Shown: piece by piece, positions 1 through 23,713 of the stretch
Numbering within the stretch: position 1 is the stretch's first letter
Layout: each line of letters begins with the position of its first letter
Assembly: GCA_963844595.1 (NCBI GenBank)
Contig: CAWJOW010000004.1
Location: 480,157-544,156 of the forward strand
Direction: 5' to 3'
Source: an uncultured Gammaproteobacteria bacterium
GTDB lineage: Bacteria > Pseudomonadota > Gammaproteobacteria > Steroidobacterales > Steroidobacteraceae
DNA: 64,000 bases
Made by a program: the position numbers and the translations under genes
The notes under the pieces: model-generated
The model's input: the letters and a program-made list of their open reading frames with translations, nothing else
Told to the model about the DNA's origin: nothing
Database searches by the model: none

Positions 1-177
1 CTGGCGCGCGCCACGCACGAGGATGGCGTCGCCCGGGGCGTCGGTCATTCCGTCACCGTCAAGGCACGAGGAGCGATGATGCGCGGCCGGCAGGCGTGCG
101 CACCGCTATTCTACGGCATCTGTAAGCGAGCGCCTGGGCGCCCGCGGGCCGGGATTGCATGGGCAACGCGGGGCTAA
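1..177 (+). CDS. 3' end of an unidentified upstream ORF running off the window edge (frame +1, stop TAA 175-177)
   Basis: Frame +1 is open from position 1 and has high third-position GC. It also contains an internal GAGGAG (68-73) followed by ATGATG (76-81), which could start a 33-aa peptide [34 protein letters not shown] cannot tell which reading is real. Confidence 0.25.
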
Positions 178-295
178 ATGGGGGCGGTTCGCGTGGCTTG
201 CAATCCAGTCGTGCCTCGACCGGTCTACTGTACGAACCGCGGCCCGTGTACGACTCACGCGCTACAATCAGGGGCTCGCGCGGGAAATCAACGAC

Positions 296-1180
296 ATGCT
301 CACACGTCCCTCGCTCGGCTTCGGCCTCGGCCTGCGCGTCGAGCACTACGAGTCGGTGCTGGCCGACCGACCACCGGTCGATTGGTTCGAGGTGCTGACC
401 GAGAACTACCTGGTGCCGGGCGGCAAGCCGCTCGACTACCTGATGCGCATCCGCGAGCGCTACCCGGTGGCGATGCACGGGGTGTCGCTGTCGATCGGCA
501 GCAGTGCACCCCTCGATCGCGAGTACCTGAGACAGGTCGCCGCGCTCGCCGCGCGGGTGCAGCCGGAATGGATCTCCGATCACCTCTGCTGGACCGGGAT
601 CGCCGGCAGGAACACCCATGACCTGCTGCCGCTGCCGTATACCGAGGCGGCGCTCGAGCACGTCGCCGCGCGCGTGCGCCAGGTGCAGGACATCCTCGGG
701 CGGCGGATCCTGCTCGAGAATGTCTCGAGCTATGTGACGTTCCGCGATTCCGCGCTCACCGAGTGGCAGTTCCTCGCCGGCATTGCCGAGCGCGCCGACT
801 GCCTGATCCTGCTCGACGTCAACAACATCTACGTGAGCGCGGTGAACCACGAGTTCGACCCGTTCGAGTACCTGAACGCAATACCCCCCGCGCGCGTGCA
901 GCAGATCCACCTGGCCGGCCACGAAGATCACGGCAGCTATCTGGTCGACACCCACGACACCGCAGTGTGCGACCCGGTCTGGGAGCTCTATGCGGCCGCA
1001 CTCCGGCGCTGCGGCCCGGTGAGCACCATGATCGAGCGCGACGATCACATCCCGCCGCTCGCGGAGCTCTGCGCCGAGCTCGCGCAGGCACGCGCGGTTG
1101 CACGCCGCGCGCAGGATGCGGTCGCGGGCGAGCGTCACGCCGCGCGGCCCGCGCCGTCCTCCACCGTCGCAGCGCCATGA
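296..1180 (+). CDS. DUF692 / MNIO (multinuclear non-heme iron oxidase, MbnB/BufB/HvfB-like) family protein
   Basis: The translation [18 protein letters not shown]...WFEVLTENY...HGVSLSIGS...ISDHLCW...ENVSSY...[10 protein letters not shown]...IHLAGH...ERDD is the typical UPF0276/DUF692 TIM-barrel motif string. I chose the ATG at 296 because upstream residues of the track ORF are non-homologous. The stop overlaps the next gene start (ATGA). Confidence 0.85.
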
Positions 1181-1959
1181 CGCCGCTCGCGCGTATCCAG
1201 GGCGACTTCCAGGATCACCTGCTGCGCGGCAGCGAGGCGGTCAGGGAGCACGTGCTCGGCACGGCGCGAGTGCCGGTGGAGACACGTCTCGGCATCTACG
1301 CCGGAGCCTACGGCAGCCGCCTCATCGACGCGCTGCGCAGCAACTACCCGGCGCTCGCCGCGCTCCTCGGCGAGGCGGATTTCGAGGCGCTGGGCGCGGA
1401 GTACGTGCGCACGCACGACTCGCCGTTCTTTTCCATCCGCAACTACGGCGACGTACTGGCGGAGTTTCTCACGCAGCACCCAACCTACGCCGAAGTGCCG
1501 GTGCTCTGCGAGCTGGCGCGCTGGGAATGGATGCTCGGTGGCGTGTTCGATGCGGCGGATGCGGCGCCGCTCACCGCCGCGGCGCTCGGGAGCGTCGCCC
1601 CCGGGGACTGGGCGCAACTGCGCTTCGAGTGGCACCCGGGCGTGCGGCGCATCGCGCTCGTCTGGAACGTGCCGCAGCTGTGGCAGGCGCTCACCGACGA
1701 GCGGGAGCGGCCCGAGCTCTCGCTGCTGGCGGAGCCCGTCGAGTGGCTCGCCTGGCGCCAGGAGCTGCGTACCTACTTCCGTTCCCTGTCAAAGAGCGAA
1801 GCGGCGCTCGTCGATGCCGCGCGTGCCGGCGCCTGCTTCGGCGAGCTGTGCGAGCAGCTGCAGGCCGAGCTCGGCGCACAGGCGGCTCCCGCGCGGGCCG
1901 CCGCGCTGCTGCGCGCCTGGGTGGCCGCGGGCCTTATTGTCGCCACGCGCACCGCGTAA
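1177..1959 (+). CDS. DUF2063 domain protein (BufC/HvfC/MbnC-like partner of MNIO enzymes)
   Basis: It is translationally coupled to the DUF692 gene (ATGA overlap). The N-terminus [16 protein letters not shown]...[31 protein letters not shown] is typical of DUF2063 proteins, which are always found next to DUF692. Confidence 0.8.
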
Positions 1960-2037: not shown

Positions 2038-3417
2038 ATGTCACCGCTGAGCTACGGCAACGTGCTGGAGATGATCGGCCACACGCCGCTCATGGCTGTC
2101 CGCCATCTGGATACCGGTCCCTGCGAGCTGTTCCTGAAGCTCGAGAACCAGAACCCGGGCGGCTCCATCAAGGACCGCATCGGGCTGTATCTGATCCAGG
2201 CCGCCGAGCGCGCCGGCAGGATCTCCCCCGGCACCATTCTGATCGAGGCCACCGCCGGCAACACCGGGCTGGGACTGGCGCTGGTTGCGGCGCAGAAGGG
2301 CTATCGTCTGGTGCTGGCGATTCCCGACAAGATGAGCCAGGAGAAGATCTTCCACCTGCGGGCGATGGGCGCCGAGGTGGTCATGACCCGCTCGGACGTG
2401 AGCAAGGGGCACCCGGAGTATTACCGCGACGTCGCCGAACGTCTCGCGCGCGAGACGCCGAACTCCTACTTCGTCAACCAGTTCGGCAATCCCGCCAACG
2501 CCCAGGCGCACGAGGAAACCACGGCTCCGGAGATCTGGGAGCAGATGGGCAAGCGGCTCGATACGGTGGTCTGCGGCGCAGGCACCGGCGGCACGCTCAC
2601 CGGGCTGTCGCAGTTCTTCACGCGCACCGCGCCGCATGTGCAAATGGTGCTGGCGGATCCGGTGGGCTCGGGACTGGCGAGCTACGCGACGACCGGCAAG
2701 CTGCCCGCGGCCATGACGCCGTGGCTGGTCGAGGGCATCGGCGGGGATTCCGTGCCGCCGGTCGCCGACTTCTCGCGCGTCAGCAGCACCTACAGCATTG
2801 CGGACGCCGAGTCGTTTCTCGCCTGCCGGGCGCTGCTCGCGAAGGAGGGGGTAATTGCCGGCACTTCCACCGGCACGCTGCTCGCGGCGGCGCTGCGCTA
2901 CTGCCGCGAGCAGCGCCAGCCGAAACGCGTCGTCACGTTCGTGTGCGACAGTGGCAACAAGTACCTCTCGAAGGTCTACAACGATTTCTGGATGCTGGAC
3001 CAGGGCTTCCTCGAGCGCCAGCGTCTCGGCGACCTGCGTGATCTGATCGTGCGGCGCTACGCGGAAGGCAATGCCGTGACGGTCAACTCCACCGAGCAGG
3101 TGCTCGCCGCCTACCGGCGCATGAAGCTCTACGACGTCTCGCAGGTGCCGGTGATGCAGGACGGCCGCATCATCGGCATCGTCGACGAGGAGGACATCCT
3201 TCTGGAGGTGTTCGCCAACCCGCAGCACTTCAGCGAGCCGGTCACCCGGGCGATGGCGAGCCACCTGGAGACCGTGCCGGTCGACGCCGGCGTGGCGCAG
3301 CTTATGGAGATATTCAAGCGCGGCATGGTGGCAATCGTCATGCACGAGAAGGAGTTCCAGGGCATCGTGACGCGCATCGATCTGCTCAACTGGCTGCGGC
3401 GCCGCATGCCCATATGA
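2038..3417 (+). CDS. cystathionine beta-synthase (PLP fold-type II domain plus C-terminal CBS pair)
   Basis: LKLENQNPGGSIKDR (PLP lysine motif), ATAGNTGLGLA and GTGGT are present. The C-terminal roughly 120 aa carry two CBS motifs (VSQVPVMQDGRIIGIVDEEDIL ... GIVTRIDLLNWL). Confidence 0.9.
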   Translation: MSPLSYGNVLEMIGHTPLMAVRHLDTGPCELFLKLENQNPGGSIKDRIGLYLIQAAERAGRISPGTILIEATAGNTGLGLALVAAQKGYRLVLAIPDKMSQEKIFHLRAMGAEVVMTRSDVSKGHPEYYRDVAERLARETPNSYFVNQFGNPANAQAHEETTAPEIWEQMGKRLDTVVCGAGTGGTLTGLSQFFTRTAPHVQMVLADPVGSGLASYATTGKLPAAMTPWLVEGIGGDSVPPVADFSRVSSTYSIADAESFLACRALLAKEGVIAGTSTGTLLAAALRYCREQRQPKRVVTFVCDSGNKYLSKVYNDFWMLDQGFLERQRLGDLRDLIVRRYAEGNAVTVNSTEQVLAAYRRMKLYDVSQVPVMQDGRIIGIVDEEDILLEVFANPQHFSEPVTRAMASHLETVPVDAGVAQLMEIFKRGMVAIVMHEKEFQGIVTRIDLLNWLRRRMPI

Positions 3418-3424
3418 GAAACGC

Positions 3425-4588
3425 ATGACCGACGAGACTGCCGCACATCGCTTTGCCACGCGCGTCATCCACGGCGGCCAGCATCCCGACCCGCTCACGG
3501 GAGCGGTGATGCCGCCGATCTACGCGACCTCGACCTACGTGCAGTCGAGCCCGGGGGTGCACCAGGGCTTTGAGTACTCGCGCACCCGCAACCCGACGCG
3601 CGACGCGCTGCAGGCGGCGGTCACCAACCTCGAAGGCGGCACCGCCGGCTTCGCGTTCGCTTCGGGAATGGCCGCGAGCGCCACGCTCCTCGAGCTCCTC
3701 GATGCCGGCGTGCACATCGTCGCGATGCACGATCTCTATGGCGGCAGCTACCGGCTGTTCGAGAACGTGCGCAGGCGCTCCGCCGGCCATCAGGTCTCAT
3801 TCGTCGATCTGTCGGACCCTGCGGCGCTCGCTGGGGCGCTGCGCCCCGAGACCCGCATGATCTGGGTCGAGACGCCGACCAACCCGCTGCTGAAGCTGGT
3901 CGATCTCGCTGCGGTCGCAGCGCTCGGGCAGCGGCACCGGCTGCTCACCGTGTGCGACAACACGTTCGCGACCCCATTCATCCAGCGCCCGCTCGAGCAC
4001 GGCTTTGACATCGTCGTGCACTCGACCACCAAGTACCTGAACGGCCACTCCGACTCGATCGGCGGCGCGGTGGCGGTGCGCGATGCGGGGCTCGCCGAAC
4101 GCATTGCTTACCTGCAGAACGCCGTCGGCGGCGTGCCGGGACCGTTCGATGCGTTCCTGACGCTGCGCGGCATCAAGACACTCGCGCTGCGCATGGAGCG
4201 GCATTGCGCGAACGCGCTCAGCGTCGCGCAGTTTCTCGAGGGGCACCCGCAGGTCGAGCGGGTGCTCTACCCCGGCCTGCCGAGCCACCCGCAGCACGCG
4301 CTCGCCCGGCGCCAGATGAGCGGCGGCTACGGCGGCATCGTCACCGCGGTGCTGCGCGGCGGGCTCGCCAGCGCGCGTCGCGCACTCGAGCGCTGCCGGT
4401 TATTCGCGCTTGCCGAGAGCTTAGGAGGCGTCGAGAGTCTGATCGAGCACCCGGGCATCATGACGCACGCCTCACTCCCCGAGGCGACCCGCAGGAGCCT
4501 GGGGATCGGCGACGGCCTCATCCGGCTCTCGGTGGGAGTGGAGGACCTCGCGGACCTGGTCGCGGACCTGCGGCACGCGCTCGGCTGA
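3425..4588 (+). CDS. cystathionine gamma-lyase / gamma-synthase family PLP enzyme (Cys/Met metabolism)
   Basis: RVIHGG...PIYATSTY...YSRTRNPTR...HSTTKYLNGHSD (PLP lysine) ...ESLGGVESLIEHP is the canonical motif series of this family. It is adjacent to CBS, which suggests reverse transsulfuration. Confidence 0.85.
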   Translation: MTDETAAHRFATRVIHGGQHPDPLTGAVMPPIYATSTYVQSSPGVHQGFEYSRTRNPTRDALQAAVTNLEGGTAGFAFASGMAASATLLELLDAGVHIVAMHDLYGGSYRLFENVRRRSAGHQVSFVDLSDPAALAGALRPETRMIWVETPTNPLLKLVDLAAVAALGQRHRLLTVCDNTFATPFIQRPLEHGFDIVVHSTTKYLNGHSDSIGGAVAVRDAGLAERIAYLQNAVGGVPGPFDAFLTLRGIKTLALRMERHCANALSVAQFLEGHPQVERVLYPGLPSHPQHALARRQMSGGYGGIVTAVLRGGLASARRALERCRLFALAESLGGVESLIEHPGIMTHASLPEATRRSLGIGDGLIRLSVGVEDLADLVADLRHALG

Positions 4589-21485: not shown

Positions 21486-21764
21486 CTACTTGCCGGCGTC
21501 AGCCTTCATCTTCGTGTGCGCGGCCTGGCAGTCGCTGCGGGTCATTTCGAGGAAGCCCTTGCCCTTGCAGGAGTTCTGTCCCTTGCAGGAGTTGTGGGCG
21601 CTCTTGCAGGCCGACTGTCCCTTGCACTGGTTCACGCCGTGACAGTGGATGGTTGCCGGAGCCGCAGCCGGCTCATCGGCCGCCGCGGCCGTGCCGATGA
21701 AGCCGGCGCCGAAGAGTATGGCAGCCGCTGTCGCGAGGGCCACACCGGAGGTTTGCTTACGCAT
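21486..21764 (-). CDS. small secreted Cys-rich NxCKG-repeat protein: candidate bufferin-type (BufA2 / 6-Cys-like) RiPP metallophore precursor
   Basis: The 92-aa product is MRKQTSGVALATAAAILFGAGFIGTAAAA|DEPAAAPATIHCHGVNQCKGQSACKSAHNSCKGQNSCKGKGFLEMTRSDCQAAHTKMKADAGK. It has a Sec signal with an AxA site and 6 Cys in repeated N-x-C-K-G context. A GAGGA RBS lies 8 nt upstream of the ATG at 21764, and the gene is immediately downstream of DoxX. Confidence 0.7.
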   Translation of the reverse strand: MRKQTSGVALATAAAILFGAGFIGTAAAADEPAAAPATIHCHGVNQCKGQSACKSAHNSCKGQNSCKGKGFLEMTRSDCQAAHTKMKADAGK

Positions 21765-21847
21765 TTGGATAGTCCTCAATGAAGTGGAATGGTTATTACC
21801 GGGCATCCACCCGGTCAGATGAGGAGACCGGGCGCGCCGCTATTTTC

Positions 21848-22345
21848 TTACGTCGGCGCGTTTTCCGCACCCGGAACTTGGCCGGGCGACCTCCCTGACC
21901 GGAGGAACCAGCGCTGCAGCCAGTGGTCGACCGACAGCAGCCCGGGGCCCGCGATCGCGAGCCACAGGAACAGTGCCAGGTACTCGAACTCGTCGAAGCC
22001 GAGCAGCGTCTCGAGGGAGTCGACATCGGCCCACTTGGCCGAGCGGATTGCCACGATCATGGTGATACCGAGGGCGCCGGCCGAGACGCGCGTCAGCAGT
22101 CCGATCAGCAGGAACAGCCCCCCGAAGAACTCGATTCCTGACACCAGGGGAGCCAGCACGTGGGGCAGGGGGATGCCCCAGCCGATGAAGTTCTGGACCA
22201 CGGTCGGCAGGTCGCTGAGCTTGCCCCAGCCGCTCCACAGGAATACCCAGCCCACGGTGATGCGGGCGACGAGCGGTGCGAGCCAGCCCAGGTAACCGGC
22301 GACTCGCCGCGGCCAGTCGATCAGCCATTGCACGACGTATCTCAC
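21848..22345 (-). CDS. DoxX family membrane protein
   Basis: LAPLVARITVGWVFLWSGWGKL....GIPLPHVLAPLVSGIEFFGGLFLLIGLLTR is the DoxX signature with four TM helices. The start was assigned to the GTG at 22345, preceded by AGGAG with a 5-nt spacer. The longer track ORF runs antisense into the sigma gene. Confidence 0.8.
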   Translation of the reverse strand: MRYVVQWLIDWPRRVAGYLGWLAPLVARITVGWVFLWSGWGKLSDLPTVVQNFIGWGIPLPHVLAPLVSGIEFFGGLFLLIGLLTRVSAGALGITMIVAIRSAKWADVDSLETLLGFDEFEYLALFLWLAIAGPGLLSVDHWLQRWFLRSGRSPGQVPGAENAPT

Positions 22346-22457
22346 GAGAACTCCTGCTAATTGTGGACGTGGGCAGTCGAGCGAGCAGACCGGGCAGCTG
22401 GCCGCCTTATTGCCCGGCGGGCGCAGGCCCCGTGCGTATAATCGCCGCGGACCCGCC

Positions 22458-23039
22458 ATGCGCAATTCTCCGTCGCCATCCCCGGTCTCCTCCATCAGTG
22501 AGCGGCTCCGCGGACCGGATGCGCGCTCCGCCATGACCGAGCTGTTCGAGCCGCTGCGCCCGGACCTGCTGCGCTTCGCCCAGTGGCTGGCACGCGACCG
22601 GTCGATCGCCGAAGACATCGTGCAGGAGGCGCTGCTGCGGGCGTGGCGGTCGCGGGATGCCCTGAAGGACCCGGCGGCTGCGCGCGCCTGGCTGCTGACC
22701 ATCGTCAGGCGCGAGCACGCGCGGCTCTACGAACGCAAGCGCCTGGAGCTGGTCGCCCTCGATGATGCTCTTGAGACACCCGACAAAGCCCTGTCCGTGG
22801 AACCCGACGACGGGCTCCTCACGCTGCGGTACGCTATCATGAAGCTGCCGCTCGAGTACCGCGAGCCGCTGGTGCTGCAGGTCCTTGGCGGCTTCTCCAC
22901 GGAGGAGATCGCGCGGGAGCTCAAGCTGTCGCCGACCGCGGTGCTGACCCGCCTGTTCCGCGCCCGCAACAAACTGCGGGTCATCTGCGGCACAGCGCCA
23001 ATGCCCGGGGCCGCCGCCACGAGCGAGGAGCCGGCGTGA
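22458..23039 (+). CDS. ECF (group IV) RNA polymerase sigma-70 factor
   Basis: Region 2 (DIVQEALLRAW) and region 4 (EYREPLVLQVLGGFSTEEIARELKLSPTAVLTRLFRARNKL) are present. An alternative start is the ATG at 22533. TATAAT at 22436-22441 lies just upstream. Confidence 0.85.
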   Translation: MRNSPSPSPVSSISERLRGPDARSAMTELFEPLRPDLLRFAQWLARDRSIAEDIVQEALLRAWRSRDALKDPAAARAWLLTIVRREHARLYERKRLELVALDDALETPDKALSVEPDDGLLTLRYAIMKLPLEYREPLVLQVLGGFSTEEIARELKLSPTAVLTRLFRARNKLRVICGTAPMPGAAATSEEPA

Positions 23040-23713
23040 TCTGCGAAGATGCCCGACTGCTGATCGGGGCCACTCCCGCTGACGTGCCGGGCGAGCTCGC
23101 CGCGCACCTCGAGGGATGCGAGCAGTGCGGCGCGCTGCAGCGCGAGATTCGCAGCTTCGAGGCTGATCTGCGCCGTGCCCTGCAGGCACCGCCGGACATG
23201 AGCCGCTTCCTCAGCCGGCGGCGGCCGCCGGTCTGGCGCGGCTGGGCGCTGGCCGCGAGCGTCGTGCTCGTTACCTGCGCGGCACTCGCCGTGTGGTTGT
23301 TGGTTCCGGGCCAGACGCTGGCACACCAGGTGGTGGTGCACGTCGAGGGCGAGCCGCAGAGCTGGCTGGCCACCGAGCAGCTGAGCGCCGCGGGTATCCA
23401 ACAGGTGCTGGACAGATCCGGCGTCCGGCTCGATCTCACCTCCGGGCGCATCGTCTATGCGCAGAGCTGCTGGTTCCGTGGCCACTATGTGCCGCACCTG
23501 GTGCTGCAGACCGCCCGCGGGCCGGCCACAGTGATGCTGCTGCGACACGAGTCGGTGATGCGCCGCGAAGCCTTCAGCGAAGCGGGTATGACCGGCATCA
23601 TCGTGCCCGCTCAGCGCGGCAGCATCGCGCTGCTCACCCGCGGGGGTGGGGACCTCAGCGCTCTCGCCGGCGAGATGCAGCGCGATACGCACTGGATGCC
23701 CGAACCGCACTGA
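23036..23713 (+). CDS. anti-sigma factor (DUF3379-like; N-terminal zinc-binding anti-sigma domain, one TM)
   Basis: It has a GTGA overlap with the sigma gene. The N-terminus C..A..L......P.EL..HL..C..C is ZAS-like, followed by a TM segment (WALAASVVLVTCAALAVWLL) and a periplasmic domain. Confidence 0.65.
   Translation: MICEDARLLIGATPADVPGELAAHLEGCEQCGALQREIRSFEADLRRALQAPPDMSRFLSRRRPPVWRGWALAASVVLVTCAALAVWLLVPGQTLAHQVVVHVEGEPQSWLATEQLSAAGIQQVLDRSGVRLDLTSGRIVYAQSCWFRGHYVPHLVLQTARGPATVMLLRHESVMRREAFSEAGMTGIIVPAQRGSIALLTRGGGDLSALAGEMQRDTHWMPEPH

Follow-up and report, generated by a model that had tools for sequence, protein, structure and literature searches.

A bufferin-2 maturase pair whose neighbouring precursor gene was lost and which most likely serves a distal BufA2 in a soil Steroidobacteraceae genome

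The window studied here, a stretch of 64,000 nucleotides (contig CAWJOW010000004.1, positions 480,157 to 544,156, assembly GCA_963844595.1), comes from an uncultured gammaproteobacterium of the Steroidobacteraceae, represented by a 3.8-Mb soil metagenome-assembled genome (MAG) of 96% completeness. It opens with a bufferin maturase pair, bufB and bufC, that has no precursor gene beside it. The only bufferin precursor gene of the genome, a bufA2, is encoded on the other strand at a distance of 19.5 kb from bufC. Judging from the comparison of related genomes, the precursor-less arrangement is a secondary state and the canonical upstream bufA2 was deleted in this lineage. BufB and BufC most likely act in trans on the distal BufA2, since both loci carry the same motif of the extracytoplasmic function (ECF) type; the bufferin-2 genes at the two loci would then form a single ECF sigma regulon, a reading in which we have good though not full confidence. 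In its parts this is an ordinary bufferin-2 system. What is new is its organisation and history, not its chemistry or the type of system.

An earlier reading of positions 296-1959 as an MNIO (DUF692)/DUF2063 pair was confirmed by profile scores. The product of bufB (296-1180, forward strand) reached 394.4 bits with the NCBIfam model MNIO_BufB (NF050167, cut-off 310), which identifies it at equivalog level as a BufB-type MNIO, and matched Pfam MbnB_TglH_ChrH (PF05114) at 2e-114. Its motifs HGxS, SDH, LEN, DxNN, HxAGH, DTH and ERD, with their conserved His, Asp and Glu residues, were all intact. Scores with the methanobactin MbnB model TIGR04159 (58.8 bits, cut-off 325) and with the HvfB model NF003818 (275 bits, cut-off 360) stayed below threshold. 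The DUF2063 partner bufC (1177-1959, forward strand) follows directly, its start sharing four nucleotides (ATGA) with the stop of bufB. Its product scored 63 bits with PF09836 (cut-off 27.2) and had no sequence match in the PDB. BufB is the only MNIO of the whole genome.

The intergenic region upstream of bufB comprises 247 nt (49-295) and is bounded by a divergent UvrA-like gene, the 5' end of which occupies positions 1..48 on the minus strand with its ATG at position 48. No precursor gene was found in this region, nor in the 12 kb fetched upstream of the window, which held the divergent UvrA-like gene only. The claim of the first-pass annotation that the maturase pair lacks a preceding precursor thus holds for the 295 nt upstream, and the extension of the sequence in the 5' direction that it had proposed as a check brought no canonical precursor to light. 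An open reading frame (ORF) of 33 aa with two Cys at 76-177 was considered as a hidden precursor and rejected: neither it nor the other ORFs of at least 20 aa in the gap were conserved, even in a relative with 94% identity. The corresponding gaps of genomes without a proximal bufA2 did not contain any conserved small ORF either.

The history of this gap could be reconstructed from a syntenic block present in about 45 species-level Steroidobacteraceae genomes. It consists of the UvrA-like gene (minus strand), bufA2 where present, bufB, bufC, the genes for cystathionine beta-synthase (CBS) and cystathionine gamma-lyase/synthase (CGL), and a DUF2891 gene (minus strand). A proximal bufA2 of about 82 aa sits about 85 nt upstream of bufB in about 70% of the congeners, which thereby show the precursor adjacency that is missing here. 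Such adjacency typifies Buf2 clusters, but the chemistry does not need it. Distances between the start codons of uvrA and bufB were bimodal, 557-897 nt with bufA2 (31 loci) and 181-254 nt without it (14 loci, this one included). In an alignment of 11 congener loci, one gap of about 330 nt cleanly takes out the ribosome-binding site, bufA2 and a GC-rich hairpin with a T-run, and an upstream motif and a TACAAT box are retained at the loci devoid of proximal bufA2.

A tree was built from flanking housekeeping proteins, namely the UvrA N-terminus, CBS and CGL. On this tree, the state without proximal bufA2 is found in a clade of 11 species that includes the present genome (SH-aLRT 94), in a separate pair and in a singleton. 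At least three changes are required, two of which are forced by strongly supported branches. These changes are read as losses because buf loci of other families nearly always have their precursor directly upstream. The three lineages also have unlike spacings of motif and bufB (50-84, 133-137 and 71 nt), and such differing end-points would fit independent deletions. Once bufA2, its ribosome-binding site and the hairpin were gone, the putative ECF promoter would have stood directly before bufB. In the keepers of the proximal gene, the conserved hairpin GCGGGCCGGGCG...CGCCCGGCCCGC and the T-run following it lie between bufA2 and bufB (e.g. 2771-2823 of locus L005; columns ~1125-1170 of alignment A1). 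It is probably an attenuator that sets the ratio of precursor to enzyme and that was removed here along with bufA2.

Loss of the neighbouring precursor was not followed by decay of the enzymes. All 14 genomes without proximal bufA2 encode full-length BufB (276-296 aa) and BufC (257-266 aa). Pairwise Nei-Gojobori estimates of dN/dS within the 11-species clade (dS ~0.6) gave 0.19 for bufB, as compared to 0.20 where proximal bufA2 was kept, and 0.35 as compared to 0.33 for bufC; the control CBS gave 0.11 and 0.15, respectively. Equal ratios, intact length and intact motifs together indicate that selection on bufBC was not relaxed. This bears on the idea that the pair is a functionless remnant of the precursor loss and that the distal BufA2 stays unmodified or works in unmodified form. 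The missing adjacent precursor and a weak ribosome-binding site of bufB would agree with it, and the literature leaves unmodified orphan precursors possible (PMC12452194). However, both genes have remained intact in 14 of 14 species-level genomes over this divergence, with the promoter motif kept as well, and not one of 864 public complete genomes having Buf2 was without an MNIO (PMC12452194). We therefore regard a remnant as improbable.

In two congeners with single-contig genomes of low completeness (G002 and G019), bufB was found in three frame-shifted pieces, which may reflect either indel errors of long reads or genuine pseudogenes.

The distal bufA2 (21486-21764, minus strand) had been singled out beforehand as the only candidate precursor, and it proved to be a genuine bufA2 and the sole one of the whole genome. 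Its product scored 89.6 bits with NF050166 (cut-off 60) and has a Sec signal peptide and a six-Cys core. Matches to DUF2282 peptides were absent from the whole genome, as were EGKCG-repeat peptides from its six-frame translations, and a regular-expression scan of the genome for EGKCG and CKG repeats returned this single BufA2 only. This bufA2 is preceded, likewise on the minus strand, by a bufD-like doxX (21848-22345, GTG start). Divergent from doxX is a gene for an ECF sigma factor (22533-23039, forward strand), 168 aa long from its true start, the ATG at 22533. It is followed by a DUF3379 anti-sigma gene (23036-23713, forward strand; PF11859, 78.5 bits), whose product has one predicted membrane segment and contains HLEGCEQC, an HxxxCxxC motif of the zinc-binding anti-sigma (ZAS) type. 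NrsF (DUF1109, PF06532) had no match.

This locus is stable across the genus. In 16 of 16 further distal loci, fetched from genomes lacking proximal bufA2, the order was hrpB, carbonic anhydrase, bufA2 and doxX, the latter two pointing away from the sigma and anti-sigma genes. Proximal-only genomes keep carbonic anhydrase, doxX, sigma and anti-sigma genes and leave no room for a bufA2. The doxX and ECF sigma/DUF3379 genes are always a separate module, 17-44 kb from bufBC, and bufA2 is found in proximal-only, double and distal-only configurations.

Proximal and distal BufA2 differ in their signal-peptide signatures and fall into two orthogroups. The BufA2 of this genome is of the distal type and is not a transposed proximal copy. 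Its core from Cys1 to Cys6 (39 residues) has a median identity of 77% to the proximal paralogues. Over 62 sequences, 21 of these 39 columns were invariant, as were the six Cys and all CKG motifs. BufB and BufC are enough for modification, and the core peptide, not the signal peptide, is involved in recognition (PMC11626156). With recognition via the core, this conservation supports the distal BufA2 as a substrate of the pair. In the 11-species clade, distal BufA2 has 6-7 extra residues around positions 28-37 (window ~21650-21690), of the form ADAP-xAxxA, which separate Cys1 from the region of signal-peptide cleavage; in other lineages the distal copies are without this insertion.

A survey of 121 genomes of the genus, 70 of which carry the bufB type of this locus, linked the loss of the proximal copy to retention of another one. 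A BufA2 elsewhere was found in 18 of the 20 genomes without proximal bufA2, as compared to 26 of the 50 with it (Fisher p=0.003). The same 18 genomes carry the whole distal module of doxX-bufA2, ECF sigma and DUF3379 anti-sigma genes. Where the second BufA2 was on the same contig (10 of 10 cases), it lay 17-36 kb downstream on the opposite strand. Both exceptions are assembly gaps: in one genome the contig begins exactly at the bufA2-type promoter beside doxX, and the other assembly, 79% complete, lacks the whole sigma locus.

These data also weigh on the second alternative, that bufBC act on some unrecognised substrate encoded elsewhere and have nothing to do with the distal BufA2. About 4000 public MNIOs have no recognised adjacent precursor (PMC12452194), and the 33-aa ORF with its two Cys might at first sight be taken for such a substrate. 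That ORF, however, is absent from the closest relative, and the gap holds no other conserved candidate. The enzyme is a BufB at equivalog level whose orthologues stand directly behind a BufA2 with a 77%-identical core, the genome offers neither DUF2282 nor EGKCG peptides, and proximal loss correlates with distal presence. We give this alternative a marginally smaller chance than the remnant. The first-pass annotation had left the choice between trans action over some 20 kb and a different, unseen substrate; the comparative evidence favours the former and disfavours the latter.

The two loci are linked by the bipartite motif GCAAT-N15-CCGGTCT. It has five exact matches on the two strands of the genome, against 0.6 expected from shuffles. 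The motif emerged from aligning the doxX-sigma intergenic regions of relatives, which exposed the degenerate positions; a stricter pattern, GCAATCC-N-GGTCTA, matched the bufB site only. One copy (GCAATCC-N13-CCGGTCT, 200-226, forward strand) is located 69 nt before the bufB ATG. Two more lie at the distal locus, GCAATAA-N13-CCGGTCT before doxX (22387-22413, minus strand) and GCAATTC-N13-CCGGTCT before the sigma gene (22462-22488, forward strand), where it would point to autoregulation. A variant, GTAAG-N15-CCGGTCT (21825-21851, minus strand), directly precedes the distal bufA2. The fourth exact copy lies outside the window (contig C2 of the genome, 429683-429709, minus strand; extended context GTGCAAT...CCGGTCTTACAGTA), about 45 nt before the gene for a secreted DsbA-like protein of 217 aa with a CPGC motif (Pfam Thioredoxin_4). 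This gene is a possible further member of the regulon, relevant to the Cys1-Cys6 disulfide of the bufferin. The fifth copy is inside a SOD-like coding region and is taken as chance.

At the buf locus, the motif was exact in 41 of 49 Steroidobacteraceae loci and within one mismatch in 45 of 49. It stands before bufA2 where this gene is present and before bufB where it is absent. Every relative checked had it at the sigma and doxX positions, and a GTAAC/GTAAG variant preceded the distal bufA2 in all 16 distal loci obtained from genomes that lack a proximal one. With its fixed spacing and its two conserved halves, the motif has the look of an ECF promoter, and we infer that the promoters bearing it are controlled by the sigma factor encoded at 22533-23039. 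Between the motif and the bufB start lies a sigma-70 -10-like TACAAT box (263-268, forward strand), nearly invariant as TACAATC. A similar conserved box, GCGTATAATC (22434-22443), precedes the ECF motif of the sigma gene. Both may be basal promoters beside the ECF promoters.

Taken together, a plausible sequence of events would be the following. Metal or envelope stress, presumed by analogy with the SigF/NrsF pair of Caulobacter, would make the anti-sigma factor free the sigma factor, which would then drive transcription of its own gene, of doxX-bufA2 and of bufBC. In the cytoplasm, BufB and BufC would turn the central Cys of the distal BufA2 into 5-thiooxazoles, and the modified peptide would be exported by Sec and chelate copper in the periplasm. 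Within one such regulon, the precursor gene may sit at the bufBC locus, at the doxX/sigma locus or at both.

Several observations weigh against this scheme. BufC scored 49.6 bits with the NCBIfam HvfC model and did not reach the cut-off of 142. The Shine-Dalgarno sequence of bufB has been weak since the deletion. Proximal and distal BufA2, as distinct orthogroups with unlike signal peptides, are assumed to be equally good substrates. The assignment as ECF promoter is a tentative one, drawn from motif conservation. Finally, the organism is an uncultured MAG, and metatranscriptome matches were short contigs of relatives only.

A third alternative concerns the genes downstream of the pair. bufC is followed by CBS (2038-3417) and CGL (3425-4588), and a convergent DUF2891 gene is found downstream of CGL. 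The first-pass annotation had pointed out this direct neighbourhood, correctly, and had seen in it a potential link to cysteine supply, which did not find support. A functional coupling of bufBC to CBS and CGL, that is to cysteine supply or sulfur metabolism instead of a peptide, might appeal to the adjacency of bufBC, CBS and CGL in all of the ~45 congeners with sequence and to the bufC-CBS interval, in which no strong terminator came to light. Adjacency of CBS and buf genes, however, is confined to this genus; among 37 buf loci from other families, not one has CBS as a neighbour. The promoter match found for CBS is sigma-70-like (1940-1967), the ECF motif being absent there, and six Cys per peptide do not call for a dedicated supply. 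The UvrA-like, CBS, CGL and DUF2891 genes give the impression of a syntenic housekeeping block in which the buf operon lies by chance; some read-through from bufC is conceivable. Coupling to these enzymes is very improbable, more so than either a remnant or another substrate. That the missing precursor is an artefact of assembly or binning, as could be feared with a MAG, is next to impossible, since the uvrA/bufB junction without precursor is contiguous in contigs of independent soil metagenomes from three studies, and 14 to 20 independent MAGs at species level show this state again.

The closest known counterpart of the proposed regulon is found in Caulobacter vibrioides. There, SigF/NrsF is encoded next to buf1ABCD and, under copper or heavy-metal stress, governs buf1 as well as the remote buf2ABC (Leprevost et al. 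2024, PMC11626156; Kohler et al. 2012, PMC3511200). Both organisms have a Sec-exported BufA2-type precursor with six Cys, a BufB MNIO and a DUF2063 partner, DoxX at one locus only and, here by prediction, an ECF sigma factor that acts from one locus on buf genes at two. The same motif before the sigma gene and the buf genes is a further feature shared with the SigF/NrsF regulon. In Caulobacter, each maturase pair is adjacent to its own precursor, whereas the single pair here has none and the sole precursor belongs to the doxX/sigma module. A further difference is the anti-sigma factor, DUF3379 with HxxxCxxC taking the place of NrsF (DUF1109), so that the present system resembles the SigF/NrsF regulon without being a member of it.

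The Haemophilus system HvfA/HvfB/HvfC/HvfX (oxazolin/EGKCG, PMC11252979) likewise combines an MNIO, a DUF2063 partner and a DoxX-family protein, and its substrate, a Cys-containing secreted copper-binding protein, is of comparable type. It differs in that the HvfB score stayed under the cut-off here and the genome has no EGKCG-repeat peptide. Membership in the methanobactin systems, with an MbnB-type MNIO, MbnC and MbnA, was not found either, the MbnB score being far under its cut-off.

A survey of MNIOs published in 2025 found sizeable fractions of Buf1 and Buf2 precursors unlinked to MNIO genes and suggested an MNIO encoded elsewhere as modifier; sigma/anti-sigma (NrsF) genes were present in Buf1 but not in Buf2 clusters (PMC12452194). 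That survey held no evolutionary or regulatory evidence for the individual case, whereas the loss described here is dated on a tree, recurrent, without relaxed selection on the enzymes and linked by a motif. With split or orphan precursors and ECF control over two loci described (PMC12452194, PMC11626156, PMC3511200), the present split cluster is less unusual than had been thought at first.

The anti-sigma family brings in a further aspect. The searchable literature on DUF3379 held only an unrelated treatment, and a homologue search with the anti-sigma factor returned same-genus proteins only. In a class-level Pfam scan (one sample), DUF3379 was present in 25 of 199 genera. Outside this genus, 17 of the 24 genomes bearing it also had an MNIO, which was within about 6 kb of DUF3379 in six of them, usually with a DUF2282 (Buf1) precursor in between. 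One further genome of the 24 has a DUF2282 precursor beside the sigma gene and the MNIO on another contig. DUF3379/ECF pairs adjoin buf genes in at least seven of the 24 other gammaproteobacterial genera sampled, so that DUF3379 may well be, next to NrsF, a second anti-sigma family associated with bufferins. At five loci of such genera (L134, L135, L138, L145 and L150), the ECF sigma/DUF3379 genes are immediate neighbours of DUF2282 (Buf1-type) precursors and of BufB/BufC genes; L150 has all of these on one strand.

On a broader scale, we lean, by a modest margin, towards seeing in this genus a natural relocation series of a RiPP (ribosomally made peptide with post-translational modifications) precursor gene. 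Its functional unit would be the ECF sigma regulon, with DUF3379 as the bufferin anti-sigma factor and with two or three losses, at the least, of the proximal copy, each in genomes where the distal copy was kept. If this holds true, a paralogous precursor encoded in one operon is served by the BufB/BufC pair of another, and the uncharacterised DUF3379 family gains a role as anti-sigma factor of bufferin regulons, placing it in the functional context of metal or envelope stress and bufferin control. Genome mining for RiPPs that relies on adjacency would label the maturase pair as precursor-less and the peptide as an orphan. The comparative evidence, that is the deletion dated on the tree, the unrelaxed selection on the enzymes and the co-retention of the distal copy, indicates that such split pairs can be a working unit joined by a shared sigma-factor promoter. 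Sister species also provide a simple test system, in which a single enzyme pair can be set against two paralogous substrates that occur naturally.

Some congeners have additional components. Four of them (L022, L023, L024 and L120) carry a third, stand-alone BufA2 without buf, doxX or sigma neighbours. About 100 nt upstream of this gene, L023, L024 and L120 show a GTAAC/GCAAG-type variant of the motif, and L022 a weaker match with two mismatches. A second BufB-type MNIO, with a hidden Markov model span of 783-789 nt, occurs in genomes G024, G049, G053, G066, G072, G082, G087, G095, G102, G115 and G131, which have no BufA2 match; it presumably uses another type of precursor. This second MNIO is not found in the genome of the window. 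As to the upstream neighbour, the UvrA-like gene (minus strand of L004, 6202-12048) encodes 1948 aa and is of double length, its N-terminal 300 aa matching three more internal regions with 32-40% identity. Across the genus it has kept its place beside the buf operon, in divergent orientation.

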